Shown piece by piece: positions 3,773 through 59,027 of a stretch of 64,000 nt of DNA. The DNA is taken from NCBI GenBank assembly GCA_009785595.1, contig WQVZ01000001.1:149-64148 (forward strand). The letters run 5' to 3'. Positions within the stretch are counted from its first letter, which is position 1. Each line of letters begins with the position of its first letter. The position numbers were made by a program, and so were the translations under genes. Below the pieces are notes generated by a model. The model was not told where the DNA came from, did not search any database, and was given only the letters and a program-made list of their open reading frames with translations. The stretch comes from Defluviitaleaceae bacterium (GTDB taxonomy: Bacteria > Bacillota > Clostridia > Lachnospirales > WRAX01).

Positions 3773-3937
3773 CCCTCCCACCAACCCGGCCCCATGACAG
3801 CAAAGCTGTCATGGGGCCGGGTTGGTGGGAGGGCCAGGGGGCCACTTGGGGGCCACCGCGGGCGAAGCCCGCGGTGGCCCCCAAGTGGCCCCCTGGCCCC
3901 AGATTTTTGATGGCCTTCGGCCATCAAAAATCTGGGG
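3773..3937. repeat. triple perfect-palindrome module 1
   Basis: H1 3773-3801/3805-3833 (29 bp, loop AAA). H2 3834-3863/3867-3896 (30 bp, loop GAA, centre GCGAAGC). H3 3897-3915/3919-3937 (19 bp, loop TTC). The hairpins abut with 0 nt between them and have no mismatches (checked by hand). The module lies between convergent genes. Confidence 0.95.
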
Positions 3938-4424
3938 CTTTTAAAAACTTGGTGTGCTTGAGTGCATATCCGGCGATAAGACCTACAAGCACACCAGTAA
4001 GTACTCCGGCTATAATCAGCACAGGAGCATAATAAAACAGGCCCGCGTTTTGCACAATAAGAGCAGCCACTACAATCTGTCCTATATTGTGAAAAACCCC
4101 ACCCCAAACACTTACACCAACCACACCAAAGATTTTCACCCTTTTGGCCAAAACCATGGCAGCATAACTTAAAATACCACCGGACAGACTGTAAGCTACG
4201 CTAAAAGGGGAACCAAAAAGCAACCCTATTGCTACTATGCGCAAGACAGATATGCCAAGAGCCGCTTTGGATCCCATGGCATAAAGGGCCATAACAACTA
4301 TAACATTAGCCAAGCCCAGCTTCACCCCGGGAACAGGTATAGGCATAGGGAAAAGTCTTTCTATATAGGCGGCCACCATAGCCAGCCCGCCCAATATGCC
4401 AAAATATGCTATCTTTTTTGCCAT
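3924..4424 (-). CDS. Gx transporter family membrane protein
   Basis: ORF-track 3924..4466 trimmed to ATG 4424, which has GGGAGAG upstream; the longer start lies inside palindrome module 2. The protein is multi-TM and Gly-rich and resembles the Gx transporter family usually paired with NusG_II proteins. The last codons and the stop lie in the right arm of module 1 hairpin 3. Confidence 0.72.
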   Translation of the reverse strand: MAKKIAYFGILGGLAMVAAYIERLFPMPIPVPGVKLGLANVIVVMALYAMGSKAALGISVLRIVAIGLLFGSPFSVAYSLSGGILSYAAMVLAKRVKIFGVVGVSVWGGVFHNIGQIVVAALIVQNAGLFYYAPVLIIAGVLTGVLVGLIAGYALKHTKFLKAPDF

Positions 4425-4460
4425 CGCGCTCTCCCATTGTTCCACTCTTTTTGTTGATTG

Positions 4461-4631
4461 CCTCAAGGCCGGTTCTACTGTTTCGCGAAGCGAAACAGTA
4501 GAACCGGCCTTGAGGCCTTAGCCCAACCAGAGTGCGCTTTGCGCACTCTGGTTGGGCTAAGGCCTCCCCCTCTCCTCCAGTCATCCCACACCCCCTTTGG
4601 GGGTGTGGGATGACTGGAGGAGAGGGGGAGG
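4461..4631. repeat. triple perfect-palindrome module 2
   Basis: H1 4461-4486/4490-4515 (26 bp, loop GAA, centre GCGAAGC). H2 4516-4537/4541-4562 (22 bp, loop TTT). H3 4563-4595/4599-4631 (33 bp, loop TTT). The hairpins abut and have no mismatches. The module sits between two co-oriented minus-strand genes. Confidence 0.95.
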
Positions 4632-4650
4632 CAAAATTTATATTGCTATA

Positions 4651-10794: not shown

Positions 10795-12027
10795 TTATCC
10801 CAGTCCCTCCAACACCCCAAAAAACCCCGGAAAACTAACACCAACACAGCCCGCATCTTGTATAACACTATGACCCCGGGCCATCAACGCCGCCACAGCC
10901 AGCGCCATGGCCACCCTATGGTCTTTATGGCTATCAACAGCCGCGCCGTACAAGGGATGCCCCCCATGTATAATCATACCATCCTGTCTGGCCTCTATCT
11001 TAGCTCCCATCTTGCCTAGTTCTCCCGTCATGGCCGCTATGCGGTTGCTTTCCTTTACGGCTAATTCTCCCGCATCTTGTATGATGGTCGCGCCTTCGGC
11101 AAAAAGTGCCGCCACCGCAAAAATCGGCACTTCGTCAATCATACGTGGAACAACATCCCCCGCTACAACCACGCCTTTAAGCACCGATTTTTTCACAAAA
11201 ATATCTCCAACTTCCTCGCCGCACACCACCCTGTGGTTTTTTACCTCAATATGTGCCCCCATACGCCCCAAAGCATCCAAAAGCCCTGTGCGCGTGGGGT
11301 TTACACCCACATTTTCTATGGTCAATCCATCCTCTGCCATCAACACCCCGGCCACAATAAAAAACGCCGCCGAAGAAAAATCACCAGGCACAATAATCTC
11401 CCGCCCTTGCAGATTTCTCCCGCCCATATATTCCATCATAATCTCCGTATGGTTGCGGGTCAGGCCGTATCCCGGCTCCTCTATCCTGGTCTCGCCCTTG
11501 GCATACAGTCCCGCCAGCATTATAGCCGACTTCACCTGGGCACTGTTTATAGGCATTTTGTAATGTATGCCCTGCAATTGTACCCCCGTAATACGTATGG
11601 GCGCAAAATTTCCCTCAATTTTCGCCCCCATTTGCGTCAGGGGCATAACAACCCTGTCCATAGGCCGCCGGCGTATGGACTCGTCCCCATCCAGCACAGA
11701 ATCAAACCGCTGCCCCGCTAACAATCCTGTCAGCAACCTAAGGGTGGTGCCGGAATTCCCCACATCCAGCACACCCTGTGGCGGTCTCATGCTTCGCAAT
11801 CCACGGCCCGTTATACGGGCCGTATTACCATGTATATTAACATCCACACCTAGTTGCCCCAGACAACGGGCGGTGGCCAAACAATCTTCCCCGGGCAAAA
11901 ATCCGGCAATATTCGTCTCGCCCCAGGCAATTGCACCCAAAATAAGTGCCCTATGGGATATAGACTTATCCCCCGGCACCCTGATGCGCCCACCTATGGT
12001 CTTTTTCGGTAAAATTTTCACATTCAT
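10795..12027 (-). CDS. aroA: 3-phosphoshikimate 1-carboxyvinyltransferase (EPSP synthase)
   Basis: ORF-track 10795..12120 trimmed to MNVKILPKK... at 12027, the usual distance before the conserved PGDKSISHRALILGA. There is no SD, and a TGcTATAAT box ends 6 nt upstream (see the promoter feature). Confidence 0.92.
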   Translation of the reverse strand: MNVKILPKKTIGGRIRVPGDKSISHRALILGAIAWGETNIAGFLPGEDCLATARCLGQLGVDVNIHGNTARITGRGLRSMRPPQGVLDVGNSGTTLRLLTGLLAGQRFDSVLDGDESIRRRPMDRVVMPLTQMGAKIEGNFAPIRITGVQLQGIHYKMPINSAQVKSAIMLAGLYAKGETRIEEPGYGLTRNHTEIMMEYMGGRNLQGREIIVPGDFSSAAFFIVAGVLMAEDGLTIENVGVNPTRTGLLDALGRMGAHIEVKNHRVVCGEEVGDIFVKKSVLKGVVVAGDVVPRMIDEVPIFAVAALFAEGATIIQDAGELAVKESNRIAAMTGELGKMGAKIEARQDGMIIHGGHPLYGAAVDSHKDHRVAMALAVAALMARGHSVIQDAGCVGVSFPGFFGVLEGLG

Positions 12028-12033
12028 AGATAT

Positions 12034-12062
12034 ATTATAGCACCGGCGCAGAAAAAACTCAA
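12034..12062 (-). promoter_or_regulatory. promoter of aroA (probable leaderless mRNA)
   Basis: The minus strand reads TTGAGT (12062-12057), a 17-nt spacer, then TGcTATAAT (-10 at 12039-12034). The ATG begins 7 nt after the -10 box. Confidence 0.5.
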
Positions 12063-12071
12063 TAAAGCTCT

Positions 12072-12099
12072 TTGCAAAGCTGACAAAGTGTGCTAAAAT
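12072..12099 (+). promoter_or_regulatory. candidate promoter of the EF-G paralog
   Basis: TTGCAA (12072-12077), 16-nt spacer, TGcTAAAAT (-10 at 12094-12099). It is divergent from the aroA promoter. Confidence 0.45.
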
Positions 12100-12142
12100 A
12101 TAAAGTAATGTATACAACACAAGAATTTTAGGAGGTAGAACG

Positions 12143-33230: not shown

Positions 33231-33414
33231 GGCCCACACTCCACTCCCACCCACCCATTTGGCGGCAAAGCCGCCAAATGGGTGGGTGGGAGTGGAGTGT
33301 GGGCCTGGGGCCGGAGCCCTGGGAGCCGCTGGGGCGCGTAGCGCCCCAGCGGCTCCCAGGGCTCCGGCCCCAGGCCCCGTGGAGAGCAAGCCTACGGCTT
33401 GCTCTCCACGGGGC
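33231..33414. repeat. triple perfect-palindrome module 4
   Basis: H1 33231-33266/33270-33305 (36 bp, loop AAA). H2 33306-33337/33341-33372 (32 bp, loop GTA, centre GCGTAGC). H3 33374-33392/33396-33414 (19 bp, loop TAC). No mismatches. There is one unpaired g between H2 and H3. Confidence 0.95.
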
Positions 33415-34220: not shown

Positions 34221-35045
34221 ATGATATTGCTTGGAAACAATTTTTTTAATAGAGCCGGCCGCAATAACTACAATTATCAACACCACGGCCAATTTCAACA
34301 AGGCCCTCAAGGTGGATGCAACGGACAAAATTGCTGTGGCAGACAGGGCACATCCCGCGGAATGCCGCCAAATTATCCGCAACAGCCCAATAATCCGCAA
34401 TTTGGCAATTTTGGCGGATGGGGCAGACAACAACAGCCAAATATGCCAATGCCATCACAAAACATGCCGCCTATGATGCAACCACCCCAAGGTGCTCCCC
34501 GCGGAAATATGCAAAACCCACATATGCCGCCCACGCATATGCCTGCCACCAATGACCCCAATGTGCGTTTCGAACCTGTGCCGCCGGAATTGCTGCCACC
34601 AGGCAAGCAATCCATAGGGCAGCCTGACCTTGGTGCGCCTTCAGGCCAAGGTCCTATAGGCGGACTGGCCGCCCAATTATCCACCCTTACCCAAGGCGAA
34701 AGCAACAGCATAGCGTATTACGAAAAATTGGTGGGCGTACCGGGCATTTCGGAAAGGGATAAAGGGCTTGTTTTGGAATTGGTCGAAAATAAAAAACGCC
34801 AAATACACAGTGTTACAGGGTTGTACAGAGATATGGCCAGGGCGGATTGGACGGCCCAAGATATGCAGGTGGAGACTGCGGCAAATTTTAGAGCCGGCCT
34901 TTCCTATGCATTGCTTCAAGAGTCCAGACTGCTACGTGAGGCTTCCGGCATACACGCCAACTTAACCGACGGCCCTCAACGCAGAGTGATGGACATAGCA
35001 CTACATCATAAAATTGCGGATATAGCCCATTTGATGGCAATATAG
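34221..35045 (+). CDS. hypothetical protein with Q/P/N/M-rich low-complexity N-terminal half
   Basis: 274 aa. Residues ~10-130 are dominated by Q, P, N, G and M (PQQPNNPQFGNFGGWGRQQQPNMPMPSQNMPPMMQPPQG). The C-terminal ~130 aa look helical. No family recognised with confidence. Confidence 0.55.
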   Translation: MILLGNNFFNRAGRNNYNYQHHGQFQQGPQGGCNGQNCCGRQGTSRGMPPNYPQQPNNPQFGNFGGWGRQQQPNMPMPSQNMPPMMQPPQGAPRGNMQNPHMPPTHMPATNDPNVRFEPVPPELLPPGKQSIGQPDLGAPSGQGPIGGLAAQLSTLTQGESNSIAYYEKLVGVPGISERDKGLVLELVENKKRQIHSVTGLYRDMARADWTAQDMQVETAANFRAGLSYALLQESRLLREASGIHANLTDGPQRRVMDIALHHKIADIAHLMAI

Positions 35046-36842: not shown

Positions 36843-36871
36843 TTGACAAAGTTATAAAACCGGGTTATTAT
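36843..36871 (+). promoter_or_regulatory. promoter of the TPP riboswitch-thiT unit
   Basis: TTGACA (36843-36848), 17-nt spacer, TATTAT (36866-36871). Confidence 0.55.
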
Positions 36872-36892
36872 GGTCTTAACAAAAAATATTAG

Positions 36893-37034
36893 TTTGGCTA
36901 GGGGTGCTTTTTGTGTGGTTTGCAAAGGGCTGAGATAATACCCTTTAACTTGATCCGGATAATGCCGGCGAAAGGAAGTTACAGCTAGGTAGTTTTTCTC
37001 TGCCGCCCTCCTTGCCATTCAATTAAAAAGGAGG
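36893..37034 (+). promoter_or_regulatory. TPP (THI-box) riboswitch with SD-sequestering expression platform
   Basis: GGGGTGC ... GGGCTGAGATAATACCC ... ACTTGATCCGGATAATGCCGGCGAAAGGAAG matches the conserved TPP aptamer core. Downstream, CCTCCTT (37007-37013) can pair with the SD AAGGAGG (37028-37034). Confidence 0.88.
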
Positions 37035-37710: not shown

Positions 37711-37740
37711 TAAAACGGGCGGCAAAATGCCGCCCCTACA
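37711..37740 (-). terminator. parB terminator formed by REP-like copy B1
   Basis: The minus strand reads TGTAGGGGCGGCATTTTGCCGCCC: a 7-bp stem and a 5-nt loop, followed by GTTTTA. 25 nt are identical to the copy at 46078-46102. Confidence 0.6.
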
Positions 37741-37775: not shown

Positions 37776-38660
37776 CTACTTTTTTGACTTTTTCACAATA
37801 TCTATAATACGGTTAAGATCTTCTGCAGAAAAATAATTTATCTCTATTTTTCCGCCGCCGCCGGTTTTGTTGTCGCGTATATTTACCCGTGTGCCAAGAA
37901 TGCCGCGCAAATCCATTTGAAAGCTCGTGTATTTTTCTTTGCTTTCGGCAGCAAGCTTTGGCTTTTCTTCTTCCGGCACCTGGCCATCGGCCAGTTTTTT
38001 TGCAAGCTCTTCGGCCGTGCGCACACTAAGGCCCTCTTCCACAATCTTTGCGGCCAGCAGGGTTTGGGCCTCTTGGTCGTCAACAGACAGCAGGGTTTTT
38101 GCGTGACCCATAGAAAGCTCGCCATTTATGATAAAGTCCTGCACCGGGGCTTGCAACCGCAAAAGTCTGATGCAGTTGGTAATATGGCTTCTGCTTTTGC
38201 CCACTTTTTTCGCAATTTCCTCTTGGGTCAAAGAAAATTCTTCGTTAAGCTTTTTGTAGCAATTGGCTTCTTCTATAGGGTTAAGGTCTTCCCGCTGGAT
38301 ATTCTCTATTAGGGCAATTTCCAAAACCTCTATGCCAGAATACTCCCGCACAATCACGGGTATTTTTCCCAGCCCCAGGTGCTGCGCCGCTCGCCATCTG
38401 CGCTCGCCCGCCACAATTACATAATTATCTCCAAATTGTGTCACAATGATGGGCTGTATTATGCCAAATTCTTTTACGGACTCCGCCAGTTCCTCTATGT
38501 GGCTACGGTCAAAGCGTTTTCTGGGTTGGTCGGGATTAGGGTTAATTTTCCCAATTTCCACTTCCAAAACCCCGCCGCTCACCGGTTCGTCATTGGCCTC
38601 GTTATAAGCTATCAATGCGTCAAGGCCTTTGCCCAGGCCTTTTCCTAAGCCTTTTTTCAT
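37776..38660 (-). CDS. parB: chromosome partitioning protein ParB/Spo0J
   Basis: 294 aa. GLGKGLDALI, IIQPIIV and GERRWRAA motifs. Confidence 0.93.
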   Translation of the reverse strand: MKKGLGKGLGKGLDALIAYNEANDEPVSGGVLEVEIGKINPNPDQPRKRFDRSHIEELAESVKEFGIIQPIIVTQFGDNYVIVAGERRWRAAQHLGLGKIPVIVREYSGIEVLEIALIENIQREDLNPIEEANCYKKLNEEFSLTQEEIAKKVGKSRSHITNCIRLLRLQAPVQDFIINGELSMGHAKTLLSVDDQEAQTLLAAKIVEEGLSVRTAEELAKKLADGQVPEEEKPKLAAESKEKYTSFQMDLRGILGTRVNIRDNKTGGGGKIEINYFSAEDLNRIIDIVKKSKK

Positions 38661-38682
38661 GGATATTACCCCCTATTGTTTT

Positions 38683-39450
38683 TTATATCTGCCTTTTCGC
38701 AATAACTTCATGAGCCAAGGCCACATACGCCTCGCAACCCTTAGATTTAGGGTCGTACATGGTTATGGGAAGTCCATGACTGGGTGCCTCACCAAGCCTA
38801 ACATTCCGCGGTATGATGCTTCTGTACACGCTGTCCTCCAGATGAGATTTTACTTCTTCTACCACCTGGGCGGACAGATTTGTGCGAGAATCGTACATAG
38901 TAAAAACCACGCCCTCCAGCTCCAGCCGCTTGTTAAGCCGCTTTTTCACCAATTCTATGGTATACATCAGCTGGCTTAGCCCCTCCAGGGCAAAGTATTC
39001 GCATTGTATGGGCACCAGTATCGAATCCGATGCCGTAAGAGCATTAACCGTAAGCAGGTTAAGGGACGGCGGGCAGTCTATCAAAATATAATCGTAAATG
39101 TACTTCATGTCCACCAATATGCGTTTTAATATGTACTCTCTGTCAGTAAAATTTATCAGCTCTATCTCTGCTCCGGCAAGCTCCACAACAGCTGGCATAA
39201 GGCTTAAATTTTCCACAATGGTAGGTATAATAACCTCATCGGCCCTTTTGGTGCCCAAAAGCAAATCGTATACCGATGCCGCCGTGGCGCGCTTGTCCAC
39301 CCCAAGGCCGCTTGTGGTGTTGGCTTGGGGGTCGGTGTCAATAACCAGCACCTTTTTGCCCTCCAAGGCAAGGCAAGCCGCCAGGTTTATGGTGGTTGTG
39401 GTTTTGCCCACACCACCTTTTTGGTTTGCTACAGAAATAATCCTTCCCAT
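38683..39450 (-). CDS. soj: chromosome partitioning ATPase ParA/Soj
   Basis: 255 aa. Deviant Walker A NQKGGVGKTTTTINLA. Confidence 0.95.
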   Translation of the reverse strand: MGRIISVANQKGGVGKTTTTINLAACLALEGKKVLVIDTDPQANTTSGLGVDKRATAASVYDLLLGTKRADEVIIPTIVENLSLMPAVVELAGAEIELINFTDREYILKRILVDMKYIYDYILIDCPPSLNLLTVNALTASDSILVPIQCEYFALEGLSQLMYTIELVKKRLNKRLELEGVVFTMYDSRTNLSAQVVEEVKSHLEDSVYRSIIPRNVRLGEAPSHGLPITMYDPKSKGCEAYVALAHEVIAKRQI

Positions 39451-39714: not shown

Positions 39715-39774
39715 ACAAAAAAACAGATTCTGCAAATTTATTGTTCCACGTGGAACATATATGCAGAATCTGTT
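39715..39774 (-). terminator. compound terminator-like hairpin enclosing parS
   Basis: 13-bp arms AACAGATTCTGCA (39722-39734) and TGCAGAATCTGTT (39762-39774) enclose the parS palindrome. The minus strand continues with a T-run (39721-39717). The structure starts 17 nt after the stop of the 39791..40357 gene. Confidence 0.5.
39742..39757. other. parS: parS centromere-like site
   Basis: TGTTCCACGTGGAACA is a perfect 16-bp palindrome matching the Firmicutes parS consensus TGTTNCACGTGAAACA. It lies ~290 bp upstream of soj-parB. Confidence 0.85.
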
Positions 39775-46077: not shown

Positions 46078-46102
46078 CGGGCGGCAAAATGCCGCCCCTA
46101 CA
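46078..46102 (-). repeat. REP-like hairpin, copy B2
   Basis: The plus strand reads CGGGCGGCAAAATGCCGCCCCTACA, 25/25 identical to 37716-37740. It lies between the DAK2 gene and recG. Confidence 0.85.
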
Positions 46103-54214: not shown

Positions 54215-56014
54215 ATGCAAAACATACGTAATTTTTCGATAATTGCCCATATTGACCACGGCAAGTCTACCCTGGCGGATAGGCTTATACAAAATTCCGG
54301 CCTGCTGACAGAGCGTGAAATGCAGGACCAAGTGCTGGACAATATGGATTTGGAGCGGGAGAGGGGCATAACCATTAAGGCCCAGGCGGTGCGACTGATA
54401 TATAGGGCCAAAGACGGGCAGGAGTACGTCCTTAACCTTATAGACACTCCCGGCCATGTAGATTTTAATTATGAGGTAAGCCGGTCGCTGGCCGCCTGCG
54501 AAGGGGCCATACTGGTGGTGGATGCCGCCCAGGGGGTGGAAGCCCAAACTCTGGCCAATGTGTATTTGGCCATTGACGAGGGACTGGAAATCGTACCCGT
54601 AATCAATAAAATAGATCTGCCTGCCGCCGACCCACCGCGAGTTATTAAGCAAATAGAGGACATCATTGGCATTGTGGCCAGTGATGCACCCCTTATATCC
54701 GCAAAAACCGGCGTGGGCATAGAGGATGTTTTTGAAAAAATAATCAAAGACGTACCTCCCCCCAGCGGTGATGCAAACGGCACCCTACGGGCACTTATTT
54801 TTGACAGTCTTTTTGATTCGTACAAGGGCGTTATTGTTTTTGTACGGGTTTTTGACGGCGTGCTTAAAAAAGGCGAAAAAATACGCTTTGTGGGCAGTGC
54901 CAAGGACTATGAAGTGGTGGAAGTGGGTATGTTTGCCCCGGGTAATTTTATACCCACAGACCAATTGACCACCGGCGAAGTTGGGTACTTTACCGCATCA
55001 ATTAAAAATGTTGCGGACACACTGCCGGGGGACACCGTTACCACGACGCATAACCCTACCGACAGACCCTTTCCGGGATATAAAAAAGCCACACCTATGG
55101 TGTTTTCGTCTATTTTTCCGGCTGACCGTTCACGATATACAGACTTGCGGGATGCCCTGGATAAATTGGTACTTAACGATGCATCACTCTTCTTCGAGCC
55201 CGTAACATCCGTGGCCTTGGGTTTTGGTTTTAACTGCGGCTTTTTGGGGCTTTTGCATCTGGAAATTATCCAAGAACGGCTGGAGCGTGAATATAATCTG
55301 GACTTGGTTTGCACAGCACCTTCGGTTGTTTACAAAATATACACCACAGATGGCCAGAACAAGGAGATCTCTAATCCCGCGGATTTTCCCGACCCTACAT
55401 TGATAGTGAAAATGGAGGAGCCCATTGTAAAGGCAGAAATTATACTGCCCAGCGGCTATATCGGGGCCATAATGGAAATTTGCCAGGGGCGCCGGGGCGT
55501 TTTCGTGTCTATGGATTATATCGAGGCCGACCGGGCCCGCCTGATATACGAAATGCCCCTTAATGAGATTATCTACGACTTTTTTGACGCCCTAAAGTCC
55601 CGCAGCCAGGGTTATGCCTCTTTTGATTATGAGCTGACAGGCTACAAAGAAAGCGCATTGGTGAAGCTGGACACATATATTAACAGGGAGGTTGTGGATG
55701 CCCTGTCCTTTATCGTCCACAAAGACTCCGCCATAGAGCGCGGCCGCAAGATTGTAGAAAAACTTAAAAAAGAGGTGCCCCGCCACCAGTTTGAAATACC
55801 CATACAAGCCGGCGTGGGTAGCAAAATTGTGGCCCGCGAAACCGTATCAGCCCTGCGCAAGGACGTACTTTCCAGATGCTACGGCGGTGATGTCACCCGT
55901 AAAAAAAAGTTGCTGGAAAAGCAAAAAGAGGGCAAGAAGCGCATGCGGCAAATTGGCAGTGTAGAGCTGCCGCAATCGGCGTTCCTATCTGTACTAAAGC
56001 TGGATGAAGACTAA
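54215..56014 (+). CDS. lepA: translation elongation factor 4 (LepA)
   Basis: 599 aa. [11 protein letters not shown] and DTPGHVDF, with the LepA-specific C-terminal domain. Confidence 0.96.
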
Positions 56015-56026
56015 TCGCTTCGCATG

Positions 56027-56131
56027 CCACGGTTCGTTTACGAACCGTGGACACCCACGCTTTGTTTACAAAGCGTGAAGAAGTACGCTGCGTTAACGCA
56101 GCGTAAAACCCACGGAGCGTTAACGCTCCGT
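56027..56131 (+). repeat. array of four tandem short hairpins (28-29 nt period)
   Basis: u1 56027-56050 CCACGGTTCG-TTTA-CGAACCGTGG. u2 56056-56077 CACGCTTTG-TTTA-CAAAGCGTG. u3 56084-56105 TACGCTGCG-TTAA-CGCAGCGTA. u4 56112-56131 ACGGAGCG-TTAA-CGCTCCGT. Spacers are 5-6 nt. Confidence 0.9.
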
Positions 56132-56155
56132 CATCGCAGGAGTGCCCTATCACCC

Positions 56156-57274
56156 ATGATGCCGTTATCTATTTACATCCATATTCCGTTTTGCGTGACC
56201 AAGTGCGGCTATTGTGATTTTCTGTCCTTTTGCGGAAGGCTGGAGGCCCACGAACCCTATGCGGAAGCCATTATAGCCGATATCGCCGCCTGTGCCAAGG
56301 ATTTTACTGGGCATGAAGTTGTCACGGTGTTTTTCGGCGGCGGCACTCCTACGGTTTTGGCCGCTGGGCAACTGGGGCGTATTTTGGGTACCATTATGGA
56401 TAATTATACTTTGGCCGATGACGCTTCCATAACCACCGAAGCTAATCCCGACACAATAGATGACGCATACTTGACTGTACTCCGCCACGCTGGCTTTAAT
56501 CGTATAAGCTTTGGGGTGCAAAGCTTTAATGACGATTTGCTGGCAAAAATAGGCCGTATTCATAATGCTGAAAAAGCCGTCCGGGCTGTGCATTTGGCCG
56601 CTCGGGCAGGTTTTGACGATATAAATATAGACCTTATGTTTGCCCTGCCCCACCAGAGCATTTCTGATTTTGAGCAATCCGTTGATGTTGCCGTAAAATT
56701 GCCCGTCACCCATATTTCCTGCTACGCCCTGTCGGCGGAAGATGGCACGCCCTTGGCCACCAACAAAGACTTGTTGCGAGCCATGCCGGATGACACTGCC
56801 GACCGAGCCATGTATCATTTGGCCGCCCAAAAGCTGTCCGCCCATGGTTTTGAGCATTACGAAATATCCAATTGGGGCCGCCCTGGCCGCCATTGCAACC
56901 ACAACATAGGCTACTGGACACGGCGGGAATATATAGGCTTTGGCCTTGGTGCCCATTCGCTGGTGCAAGACCGCCGCTTTTGCAGAACAACCAATCTCGA
57001 AGACTATATTAAAGGCAATTTTTTCCCAATACATCTGGAGGACATAACCCACCAGGCCGCCATGGCAGAATTTGTTATACTGGGCTTGCGCCTTGTGCGG
57101 GGCATTGATGTCAATAATTTTAGGCAATGCTTCGGCCAAAACATAGAACATGTTTTTGGGCACCAATTAGAAAAATTTGTTAAAAATGGGCTGCTTGCAA
57201 TAGACAGCCCCAACATTAAACTGACAAAGCATGGGCGGGACCTGTCCAACGCAGTTTTTGCCGATTTTATATAA
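56156..57274 (+). CDS. hemW: radical SAM heme chaperone HemW (HemN-like)
   Basis: ORF-track 56024..57274 trimmed to MMPLSIYIHIPFCVTKCGYCDF at 56156; the upstream extension merely translates the hairpin array. CxxxCxxC radical-SAM motif. lepA-hemW synteny. Confidence 0.9.
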   Translation: MMPLSIYIHIPFCVTKCGYCDFLSFCGRLEAHEPYAEAIIADIAACAKDFTGHEVVTVFFGGGTPTVLAAGQLGRILGTIMDNYTLADDASITTEANPDTIDDAYLTVLRHAGFNRISFGVQSFNDDLLAKIGRIHNAEKAVRAVHLAARAGFDDINIDLMFALPHQSISDFEQSVDVAVKLPVTHISCYALSAEDGTPLATNKDLLRAMPDDTADRAMYHLAAQKLSAHGFEHYEISNWGRPGRHCNHNIGYWTRREYIGFGLGAHSLVQDRRFCRTTNLEDYIKGNFFPIHLEDITHQAAMAEFVILGLRLVRGIDVNNFRQCFGQNIEHVFGHQLEKFVKNGLLAIDSPNIKLTKHGRDLSNAVFADFI

Positions 57275-57296
57275 AACAAGCAGCGAGGTGCAAATT

Positions 57297-59027
57297 ATGG
57301 AATATATGAAGCGATATCAGACCTGGCGTGACAATGACGCCTTTGATGAGGCCACGCGGGCAGAGCTTGCCGCAATTGCCGAAAACAGTGCGGAAATCGA
57401 AGAGAGGTTCCACCAAGACTTGGAATTTGGCACAGGCGGCCTGCGGGGCGTTCTTGGTGCGGGCACAAACCGCATGAATGTATATACTGTGCGCCGGGCC
57501 AGCCAAGGCCTTGCGGACTATATTCTGGCTAATTCGCATGATGGCAGAGAGCGCGGCGTTGTGGTGGCCCACGACAGCCGCCGTTTTTCCCGTCAATTTG
57601 CCCTGGAAGCCGCCCTTGTCATGGTACAAAACGGCATACGTGCCTATATTTTTAAAGACCTGCGCCCCACACCCCAGCTTTCCTTCACCCTTCGCCGCTT
57701 GGGCTGCATTGCCGGTGTGATGATAACCGCCAGCCACAACCCGCCGGAATACAACGGATACAAGGCATATTGGACCGATGGCGGCCAGTTTGTGCCGCCC
57801 CAAGACGCCGAAGTTATTGCCTGTGTTAATAAAATTGAGGATTTAACCGGGTTAAAGGCCGCCGACGAGGTCGAGGCCATACGCTCCGGAATGCTGACAA
57901 TTTTGGACGAAAGTTTTGACGACGAATACAAACAAACCGTGCTGGCCCAAATCCTTAACCCGGGCACCATACAGGCCATGTCGGATGATTTTACCATAGT
58001 ATACACCCCCCTAAACGGCGCGGGCAATATGCCTGTGCGCTGTGCGCTAACCGATGCAGGCTTTAAGCACATACATGTGGTGACCCAACAGGAGCAACCC
58101 GACCCCAATTTTACCACCCTGTCTTATCCCAATCCCGAAGATCCGGCGGCCTTTGCCTTGGCAGCGACCCTAGCGCAAGAAAAAAACGCCGATATCATAA
58201 TCGCCACAGACCCCGATGCCGACCGCATGGGGGCCATGGTGCGGGATGCTAACGGCGAATATCAACTGCTAAGCGGCAATATTACCGGGGTGTTAATGGC
58301 AGAGTATGTAATGTCCCAACAGCAGCAAAAAGGCATACTGCCCGCCAATGCCGCCATTGTGTCCACCATTGTGTCCACCAAACTTACCCGGAAAATTGCA
58401 AAACATTACAACGCCGCATATTACGAGGTGTTGACGGGCTTTAAATTTATTGCCGAAAAAATACACCAGTGGGACACAAACGGCCAGCACACCTTTGTGT
58501 ACGGATTCGAGGAAAGCTACGGCTATCTGGCAGGCCACGCCGCACGGGATAAAGACGCCATTATAGCCTGTGTGCTTATTTGTGAAATCGCCGCCTGGTA
58601 CAAATCCCGCGGCATGAGCATTTTTGATGGCATTGATGAAATTTATCGCAAATACGGCTATTTTAAAGACAGCGTGCGCTCCGTTACCCTAAAAGGCCTT
58701 GAAGGCCTGGCAAAAATACGTGGCATTATGGCTAATTTGCGGGAGAATATCCCCGCTTCCATAGCCGGCATCGGCCTGGAGGAGTTTCGCTGCTACAAAA
58801 CCTCCACCACCCACAATCTTATCACCGGCAACACGAGCCAAATAACCCTACCAACCAGCGATGTGCTGTATTACACCCTGGCGGACGGCAGTTGGTTTTG
58901 CGTACGCCCATCGGGCACCGAACCTAAGATAAAAATATATATGGGCGTAGCGGGGGATTGCGGCAAAACAGCCCAGGCCAAGCTGGATGCCCTGTCACAC
59001 GCCGTGGCTGATTTGATAGGAGTATAA
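57297..59027 (+). CDS. phosphoglucomutase/phosphomannomutase family protein
   Basis: Start trimmed to MEYMKRYQTW at 57297, with GAGGTG upstream. Active-site loop TASHNPPEYNGYK. Confidence 0.9.
   Translation: MEYMKRYQTWRDNDAFDEATRAELAAIAENSAEIEERFHQDLEFGTGGLRGVLGAGTNRMNVYTVRRASQGLADYILANSHDGRERGVVVAHDSRRFSRQFALEAALVMVQNGIRAYIFKDLRPTPQLSFTLRRLGCIAGVMITASHNPPEYNGYKAYWTDGGQFVPPQDAEVIACVNKIEDLTGLKAADEVEAIRSGMLTILDESFDDEYKQTVLAQILNPGTIQAMSDDFTIVYTPLNGAGNMPVRCALTDAGFKHIHVVTQQEQPDPNFTTLSYPNPEDPAAFALAATLAQEKNADIIIATDPDADRMGAMVRDANGEYQLLSGNITGVLMAEYVMSQQQQKGILPANAAIVSTIVSTKLTRKIAKHYNAAYYEVLTGFKFIAEKIHQWDTNGQHTFVYGFEESYGYLAGHAARDKDAIIACVLICEIAAWYKSRGMSIFDGIDEIYRKYGYFKDSVRSVTLKGLEGLAKIRGIMANLRENIPASIAGIGLEEFRCYKTSTTHNLITGNTSQITLPTSDVLYYTLADGSWFCVRPSGTEPKIKIYMGVAGDCGKTAQAKLDALSHAVADLIGV

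Follow-up and report, generated by a model that had tools for sequence, protein, structure and literature searches.

The 64,000-nucleotide stretch of DNA analysed here (the window; from WQVZ01000001.1) lies within an 87-kb contig of an uncultured Defluviitaleaceae bacterium, known as a metagenome-assembled genome (MAG). Among neighbouring genes of housekeeping function, lepA and hemW follow one another on the + strand, and the spacer between them holds, at 56027-56131, four perfect hairpin-forming palindromes in tandem, which are the subject of this work. The lepA gene (54215-56014, + strand, TAA stop at 56012-56014) encodes EF4, with the Pfam domains GTP_EFTU, EFG_C and LepA_C, and its product is listed by NCBI as translation elongation factor 4 (MCL2396487.1). 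The hemW gene (56156-57274, + strand, ATG at 56156) encodes the radical SAM heme chaperone HemW (MCL2396488.1). The spacer is 141 nt long: a leader of 12 nt (56015-56026, + strand) separates the lepA stop from the first unit, and the array ends 24 nt before the hemW ATG, in agreement with an earlier preliminary description of the window. The end of the fourth unit lies 7 nt from AGGAG (56139-56143, + strand), the probable Shine-Dalgarno sequence of hemW, which is located 12 nt upstream of the ATG.

Structure and variation of the array

Unit 1 (CCACGGTTCG-TTTA-CGAACCGTGG, 56027-56050) forms a perfect stem of 10 bp and unit 2 (CACGCTTTG-TTTA-CAAAGCGTG, 56056-56077) one of 9 bp. Unit 3 (TACGCTGCG-TTAA-CGCAGCGTA, 56084-56105), with a perfect 9-bp stem, and unit 4 (ACGGAGCG-TTAA-CGCTCCGT, 56112-56131), with a perfect 8-bp stem, are in addition full DNA palindromes of 22 and 20 nt, respectively, and none of the four is assigned to a strand. 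The sequence itself and the repeat search agree on these positions and stem lengths, as the preliminary description had given them: the search recovered a direct family of four copies of 28 nt, with centres 28, 28 and 27 nt apart, and returned every unit as an inverted repeat of 100% complementarity with a loop of 4 nt. The units are 61-75% identical to one another and are separated by linkers of 4-6 nt. They are also inverted repeats of one another, at 77-80% complementarity, so that template switching between units would be possible. The array was recovered in three assemblies, namely the window, an ENA MEGAHIT contig (L001/L093) and a Logan contig (L095), and is thus real and not an artefact of assembly.

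Folded singly as RNA, units 1 to 4 reach -16.7, -11.6, -14.3 and -13.2 kcal/mol, and folded as DNA they range from -11.2 to -8.7 kcal/mol. The fold of a 151-nt region has a z-score of -8.1 on the + strand and of -5.9 on the - strand, with no shuffled sequence folding equally well. Moreover, the motif CG-N4-GTTWAC-N4-CG occurs eight times in the window when both strands are counted, against 0.15 expected, and six of these eight matches are the four units.

The differences among the units are confined to a striking pattern. In the alignment of the four units, five of the ten pairs change, in every case on both sides (seven cells) and never on one side, which bears out the earlier observation that each change in the inner stem is mirrored in the opposite arm. 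There is no G.U among the 38 pairs of the array, the covariation score was matched by none of 500 shuffles, and slid controls fell to 22-43% paired; the probability that all 16 variable arm positions would be complementary by chance is about 2e-10. Invariant in all units are the ACG/CGT base of the stem, the closing G-C pair and three of the four loop positions. The conservation of an outer CACG/CGTG had been overstated in this respect: the unit ends read CCACG/CGTGG, CACG/CGTG, TACG/CGTA and ACGG/CCGT from unit 1 to unit 4, so the outermost C-G is found in units 1 and 2, is replaced by T-A in unit 3 and is unpaired in unit 4. The linkers (ACACC, AAGAAG and AAAACC) cannot be aligned, and TRF, a tandem-repeat finder, makes no call on the array.

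The Logan contig L095 (SRR10512955), which was reached through the 90% HemW cluster by way of a 416-aa Logan gene call and was seen in two samples, comes from the same organism and carries a variant of the array. Over 1,568 nt (window 55918-57485) it differs from the window at three bases, all of them inside the array. At 56032, a G>A change in unit 1 affects one arm only, leaving an A.C mismatch on the + strand and a G.U pair on the - strand. At 56066-56067, TT>AA inverts the loop of unit 2, from GTTTAC to GTAAAC; the asymmetric centre of the loop stands in L095 exactly as its own reverse complement, and 1,460 nt of flanking sequence are identical. The 7.8 kb compared between the window and the Logan contigs hold only four variant events, at least two of which would fall within the array (105 nt) by chance with a probability of about 4e-4 to 1.4e-3. 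The ENA contig has the window version of the array (GTTTAC in unit 2), even though other single-nucleotide polymorphisms (SNPs) are common to it and the Logan contigs, and judging from these assemblies both forms of the array may coexist in one population. The window and the ENA contig also differ by clusters of 5-6 substitutions, 3 nt apart and at synonymous third-codon positions, in lepA (55396-55411) and at 34988-35009, in sequence that is otherwise about 99.9% identical, which suggests short recombination tracts or co-assembled strains.

Taken together, the sequences indicate that the compensatory pattern is probably due mainly to a templated process at the DNA level and not to selection on RNA. 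Template-switch mutations create perfect stems in one step, maintain them and give multi-base compensatory changes, and the loop inversions that they cause typically involve loops of 4 nt that are partly self-complementary (PMC8794818). Template switching in yeast homogenises the arms of inverted repeats and inverts their spacers (PMC8604942). The array bears three such marks: units that differ from one another by multi-base compensatory changes, with neither a wobble nor a one-sided step among them (seven cells in five pairs), and, at the level of assemblies, a one-arm intermediate (unit 1 in L095) and the inversion of a loop between very close sequences (unit 2 in L095). Since a loop flip together with homogenised arms is a known signature of template switching, covariation free of wobble can be explained here without selection at the RNA level. 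At the frequency of G.U that is typical of RNA stems, 38 pairs would be free of it with a probability of about 0.02-0.14. A crude estimate of rates sets one flip among two flippable loops beside an expectation of about 0.03-0.05 substitutions in 105 nt over the same time; on this estimate switching is much commoner than new mutations in the arms, and the stems would settle at perfect pairing even if pairing were not selected for. The preliminary description had left a choice between selection for hairpin structure and its templated generation; the loop flip in L095 and the double-sided changes favour the latter, and selection on RNA is no longer demonstrated.

Transcriptional setting and search for related elements

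A scan for promoters and terminators found neither a sigma-70-like promoter on the + strand nor a hairpin followed by a U-tract in the lepA-hemW spacer, so the two genes are probably co-transcribed and the array would then probably be transcribed within their common mRNA. A ribosome that terminates at the lepA stop codon would cover roughly the 12-nt leader and, judging from general ribosome footprint sizes, the array would fill just the interval that is covered neither by a ribosome terminating on lepA nor by one initiating on hemW. The AGGAG of hemW is mostly paired in the predicted fold, with a partner that shifts with the folding window, and a closing helix that masks the Shine-Dalgarno sequence was rejected as unreliable for this reason. 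An alternative in-frame ATG at 56024 reads through the array into hemW and gives the 416-aa gene call mentioned above; it is probably a spurious start, as it has no Shine-Dalgarno sequence and homologues have the shorter N-terminus. The open frame of 44 codons across the array has a chance probability of about 0.12, and a search with the 44-aa peptide encoded there gave no match.

No described element was found to match the array, as had been stated before. Rfam at gathering thresholds gave no match in the window except for a thiamine pyrophosphate (TPP) riboswitch elsewhere (36890-36993; RF00059, 66.8 bits), which has a consensus promoter upstream (36843-36871) and the gene of a Thia_YuaJ thiamine transporter downstream. 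At E<=10 the sole match was mir-471, with a meaningless 15.8 bits against a cut-off of 80 bits. The covariance-model search proposed in the preliminary description was run with a model (R1) built from the four units, on the window with filters off and on 84 further loci. No sequence but the four units scored above 24 bits, whether in the window or among the other loci (640 kb), and nothing was found in the 10 kb beyond the window; a match in one locus (L077) proved to be an ordinary terminator. Searches with a motif expression and scans for perfect hairpins in the window, the contigs and the loci of relatives likewise returned only the array itself, and no scattered copies of a REP (repetitive extragenic palindrome) or MITE (miniature inverted-repeat transposable element) kind, lacking compensatory variation, were seen in about 74 kb of this genome.

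The tandem pattern of two units gave five matches in 241 million JGI metagenome records, all of them simple satellites without palindromy, and none in IMG/VR, and a blastn search of the array against phages and plasmids gave none either. Open reading frames spanning the array, or the long palindrome modules described below, were sought as a route to further assembly variants, and none is on record. On this sequence evidence the array is a lineage-specific orphan.

One solitary look-alike, ACGGCCCG-TTATA-CGGGCCGT (11803-11823, not assigned to a strand), forms a perfect 9-bp hairpin inside aroA (10795-12120, - strand) and scores 19.7 bits with model R1 (E about 0.012). It is preceded by CC, and its outer CCACGG..CCGT and inner CGTTA.ACG are as in unit 4. 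The segment encodes ordinary AroA residues (..NTARITGRG..), with no visible insertion, and a gene of a relative (L085) examined in this connection is MurA-like and not AroA. The hairpin could be due to chance, a solitary member of the family or a product of template switching, and its status as a fifth member is doubtful.

Besides, two other palindromic sequences were observed. Four identical copies of a 19-nt hairpin, GGGCGGCAAAATGCCGCCC or the complement of it, lie at gene ends in about 74 kb (37717-37735 and 46079-46097 in the window; 2355-2373 and 6987-7005 in L093); this repeated, terminator-like hairpin might be a small REP-like family. A perfect 16-bp palindrome, TGTTCCACGTGGAACA (39742-39757), adjoins parA and parB genes (37776-39450) and resembles a parS site; if it is one, the window would be near the replication origin.

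Comparison of orthologous junctions covered the lepA loci of 80 Bacillota of GTDB, among the matches listed, and five relatives within the Defluviitaleaceae. In the former, hemW directly follows lepA in 52 of 80 loci, with a median gap of 31 nt, and none carries the array at the lepA locus; nor did the spacers compared include one in which the outer motifs are conserved and the palindromy lost. The five family relatives also lack a hairpin array, and they have other genes between lepA and hemW or hemW elsewhere, so that the gene junction, which had been called conserved, is so in Bacillota generally and not within this family. The closest HemW homologue among 5.8 billion proteins is 66% identical, and the relatives examined range from 66 to 55%. 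Three of the loci (L016, L038 and L042) have ordinary lepA spacers with a terminator and a promoter. The only other lepA 3' region with several hairpins among the 80 loci listed belongs to a Fusicatenibacter MAG (L029, 4863-4967), in which three unrelated perfect hairpins stand in tandem past lepA, with stems of 10, 10 and 8 bp, 3-nt loops (GGA, GAA and AAC) and spacings of about 41-45 nt, next to a convergent GtrA-like gene.

Among known systems, the array most resembles REPs and the mosaics that they form (bacterial interspersed mosaic elements, BIMEs) and, as far as its sequence indicates, is an orphan example of clustered extragenic palindromes that stands outside this group. REP/BIME elements of Enterobacteria and Pseudomonas are short extragenic palindromes (20-40 nt) with regular spacing, placed between co-oriented genes just past a stop codon and transcribed with the operon, as is REP325 of Escherichia coli between yjdM and yjdN. 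The array has the size and location given for REPs (20-40 bp, extragenic, downstream of a coding sequence; PMC3733652) and lacks the unpaired GTAG/CGTC tag at one end. REPs are imperfect palindromes that share one sequence, number hundreds of copies and often alternate in orientation, whereas the array has perfect stems, unit-specific cores, no tag and a single occurrence in 74 kb; together with the one doubtful intragenic match (E about 0.012) it makes up the whole copy number in 64 kb, with none in the next 10 kb.

The hairpins attributed to template switching (Mönttinen & Löytynoja 2022), quasipalindrome mutagenesis in E. coli and the yeast case share with the array the perfect stems, the wobble-free multi-base changes, the one-arm intermediates and the inversion of a partly self-complementary 4-nt loop when very close relatives are compared. 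The published cases are hairpins that stand singly in rRNA, miRNA or coding genes, whereas in the array four adjacent units of a non-coding spacer would all undergo the process. The MAEB motif of Burkholderia is also a short hairpin with conserved positions, present in 2-12 tandem copies with regular linkers upstream of a metabolic gene, and may act either as RNA or as a DNA-protein site (PMC1950547). It differs in that hundreds of instances are known, its linkers are conserved, some of its pairs are disrupted and one symmetric position is purine-purine, whereas the array has no Rfam match, linkers that are not conserved and one locus. Clusters of at least two hairpins less than 15 nt apart and no more than 80 nt from a stop codon have been proposed as termination units that do not require a U-tract (Gupta & Pal 2021; PMC8355165). 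The array is alike in these respects; that class, however, is a statistical one from inter-operon regions, whereas the array lies inside a probable operon and has related units, and termination there is putative.

Several other identities were tried and rejected. The units are not called by the terminator scan, and their tails (ACACCC, AAGAAG, AAAACC and CATCGC) do not make them canonical intrinsic terminators; no covariance model of Rfam, including MAEB, mini-ykkC and REP-like entries, matched. The absence of the CIRCE/HrcA operator (TTAGCACTC-N9-GAGTGCTAA), noted earlier, was confirmed by a search of the window that allowed up to three mismatches. A period of 27-28 nt, linkers of 4-6 nt, units 61-75% identical and the lack of spacers exclude a CRISPR array. 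Integron attC sites are imperfect palindromes of 57-141 nt with RYYYAAC/GTTRRRY core sites and extrahelical bases; the units are perfect and 20-24 nt long, their GTTWAC is apical and unlike GTTRRRY, and no integrase is encoded in the window. By inspection, a reading of unit 1 as a parS site or a LexA Cheo box fails on misordered quarter-sites, and would concern unit 1 only. Minute loop inversions in non-coding hairpins of chloroplasts and the flip/flop forms of the terminal hairpins of parvoviruses also involve a loop within a perfect inverted repeat that occurs in both orientations in a population; they belong to other genomes and to mechanisms of recombination or hairpin-primed replication, and no role in replication is proposed for the array.

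Origin and possible effect of the array

The array may be understood as a lineage-specific palindrome block that was duplicated, symmetrised by template switching and endowed with a REP/BIME-like effect between two cistrons, an explanation that we favour tentatively and, taken as a whole, hold with a confidence somewhat short of even. The array would have been born by tandem duplication of a hairpin unit of about 28 nt. During replication, the nascent strand would switch template and copy the opposite arm of the inverted repeat, so that a mutation in one arm would be either erased or copied to the other, and differences between the units would build up on both sides at once, without passing through G.U or G.T. 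Now and then an asymmetric loop would be inverted, making the array a local hot spot of variation, and its arms would owe their exact complementarity to template switching and not to stepwise compensatory selection. In the lepA-hemW mRNA, the array would place four stable stem-loops in a stretch free of ribosomes, where it could act as a barrier to exonucleolytic decay and as a partial, non-canonical attenuator, uncoupling the levels of lepA and hemW. By analogy with REP/BIME elements, such a decay barrier or partial attenuator is the most likely effect of the array; REP325, a tandem REP cluster between co-oriented genes, is both a partial terminator and a stabiliser of the upstream mRNA (bioRxiv 10.64898/2026.03.23.713779).

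Several points weigh against this explanation. At the level of the available assemblies, the inference of template switching comes from one variant contig; the flip behind it could conceivably be an artefact of a polymerase in vitro, though several reads must contain the flipped 31-mers for a k-mer assembly to include them. As described above, the ENA assembly keeps the window version of the array, and the version in L095 may be a minority allele. The origin by duplication is weakly supported, as the linkers cannot be aligned and TRF makes no call. The hairpins lack U-tracts, and the one-arm mismatch seen at assembly level argues against a strong constraint on pairing. Finally, ACG/CGT and G-TTWA-C are invariant while the linkers have diverged, which hints at a sequence-specific constraint of which the proposed mechanism makes no use.

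Among rival explanations, the array could be a neutral by-product, namely a tandem palindrome made by slippage in a dispensable spacer, kept symmetric by template switching and harmless because it lies outside ribosome footprints; this is possible, if on balance unlikely, and nearly as probable as a REP/BIME-like effect, since no relative examined has the array and a mismatch is tolerated. The junction has no array in any of the relatives or of the lepA-hemW loci among those listed, with their median gap of 31 nt, and in Defluviitaleaceae it is a site of gene gain and loss. The array is, moreover, the only variable stretch in 1.5 kb and has an uncorrected mismatch in one variant, which suggests weak constraint, and by the crude rate argument template switching alone could keep the arms perfect. 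A neutral origin accounts less well for three stem-base pairs, a closing G-C and three of four loop positions that are invariant in all four units beside linkers that cannot be aligned, or for the neat fit of the array to the ribosome-free interval; besides, stable hairpins in an mRNA almost inevitably influence its decay or readthrough somewhat. The same invariant positions are what an array of protein sites would display, with conserved base and apex around a free 4-bp core, whether a homodimeric regulator binds duplex operators of the form ACG-N4-GTTWAC-N4-CGT or a protein binds hairpin RNA or single-stranded DNA through the stem base and G-UUWA-C. The preliminary description had taken covariation to exclude a simple protein-binding site, a conclusion that can no longer be drawn: template switching would also symmetrise operator positions that no protein contacts, so mirrored arms neither prove an RNA fold nor exclude a duplex protein site, and the mirrored cores cease to count against an operator. 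The regular spacing of 27-28 nt and the position immediately upstream of hemW also suit this idea, and MAEB and tandem hairpins of the CsrB type are precedents for multi-copy protein-binding hairpins (PMC1950547). Protein sites nevertheless appear improbable, as an operator would find no + strand promoter to control within the spacer or close to it, the motif is found at no other regulatory region in 74 kb, a period of 28 bp is not a whole number of helical turns, and a loop flip and a stem mismatch are tolerated at a frequency visible in assemblies; the split into conserved and variable positions is itself weak, since with four units a contiguous variable block would arise by chance in about 7% of cases.

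The array might instead be a BIME-like cluster of a low-copy, REP-like family of mobile palindromes, spread by a REP-associated (RAYT) or IS200/IS605-type tyrosine transposase encoded elsewhere. Units of 20-24 nt clustered between co-oriented genes downstream of a stop codon agree with the description of REPs, and intragenic REPs are known (PMC3733652), which would accommodate the aroA look-alike at 11803-11823 (E about 0.012); the search, in addition, covered about 2-3% of the genome. We regard this as quite improbable, given that there is no unpaired GTAG/CGTC tag (CGTC occurs in unit 4 only, by way of its flank), that 74 kb hold one array and one doubtful singlet, that the genes of the window and of the 10 kb beyond it include no transposase, RAYT, integrase or HUH domain, that the tandem pattern is absent as such a family from the 241 million metagenome records and from IMG/VR, and that the aroA segment codes for AroA residues without a visible insertion. 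Least probable of all, and very unlikely in our view, is a cis-antisense RNA that would start within hemW, run across the hemW start and Shine-Dalgarno sequence and be ended or stabilised by hairpins that face the convergent lepA transcript. Its candidate promoter (TTGGCA-17-TATAAT, 11/12; 56298-56270, - strand) lies inside hemW, points towards the array and the hemW start and is one of only three sites in 64 kb that match sigma-70 at 11/12 or better, of which two are at credible promoters (before the TPP riboswitch and in an intergenic region); about 0.85 such matches are, however, expected by chance in the window. The palindromes fold equally well on the - strand (z-score -5.9), where unit 4 is followed by GGGUUUU, but this U-run is short, GGG stands between it and the stem, and the terminator scan makes no call. 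The variant of unit 1 is a G.U pair on the - strand, yet a wobble on a given strand is expected from half of all single transitions, and both promoter and transcript are sequence predictions only.

Long palindromes in the window and wider meaning

Four intergenic modules of the window (3773-3938, 4460-4632, 26305-26525 and 33231-33414) each consist of three abutting long perfect palindromes. Their stems measure 19-50 bp without a mismatch or a G.T pair, their 3-nt loops (mostly AAA, TTT, GAA and TTC) are closed by G-C, their GC content is 62-73% against 36-43% in the flanks, and all 12 sequences are unique. Neighbours within a module overlap by 3-5 nt and have the same terminal clamp (for example GCCTC/GAGGC), so a perfect four-way junction would be an alternative fold. 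The ENA contig has all of the modules, the Logan contigs, which break inside the arms, have them to the extent that they cover them, and relatives lack them. Position 26406 belongs to the middle palindrome of the third module, whose stem is 50 bp long; the window has T there and a perfect stem, and the ENA contig has G and one G.A mismatch, a difference that may be a one-arm intermediate or an assembly error at a homopolymer. Another unusually long perfect palindrome, CACAAATACCGGGCGGCC-A-GGCCGCCCGGTATTTGTG (L093 6239-6277), with a 19-bp stem and a 1-nt loop, lies about 4 kb past the 3' end of the window on the same contig, between histidine kinase and helix-turn-helix (HTH) genes.

The short array and the long modules are alike in having a common clamp at the stem base in each module (ACG; GCCTC/GAGGC; TGCC/GGCA; GGSCC), a conserved apex closed by G-C with a short A/T loop, a free and unique core, and perfect Watson-Crick stems. 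A single process, specific to this lineage, could have generated both or could maintain them as palindromes at gene boundaries, a conjecture to which we assign a low probability; candidates for such a process would be an unusually active template switching, the loss of nucleases that destroy palindromes, or a hairpin-dependent enzyme not yet known. If true, it would amount to an undescribed hairpin punctuation of the bacterial chromosome, of which the short array would be a fast-evolving miniature form. The long triple palindromes are stranger and much harder to explain than the array and are the part of this window that most deserves follow-up.

As a regulatory element, the array matters little, being an unconserved feature at a single locus of one uncultured genome. 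Its importance is of another kind: when repeated hairpins covary with perfect compensation, an RNA structure under selection is usually taken as proven, and the array is a caution against this and a natural example of the alternative. Should the flip of the unit-2 loop be borne out, the lepA-hemW spacer of this Defluviitaleaceae bacterium would provide a compact bacterial case in which template switching both diversifies and symmetrises hairpins, and pipelines that discover RNA structures by covariation would have to discount covariation that is free of wobble and confined to a single array.

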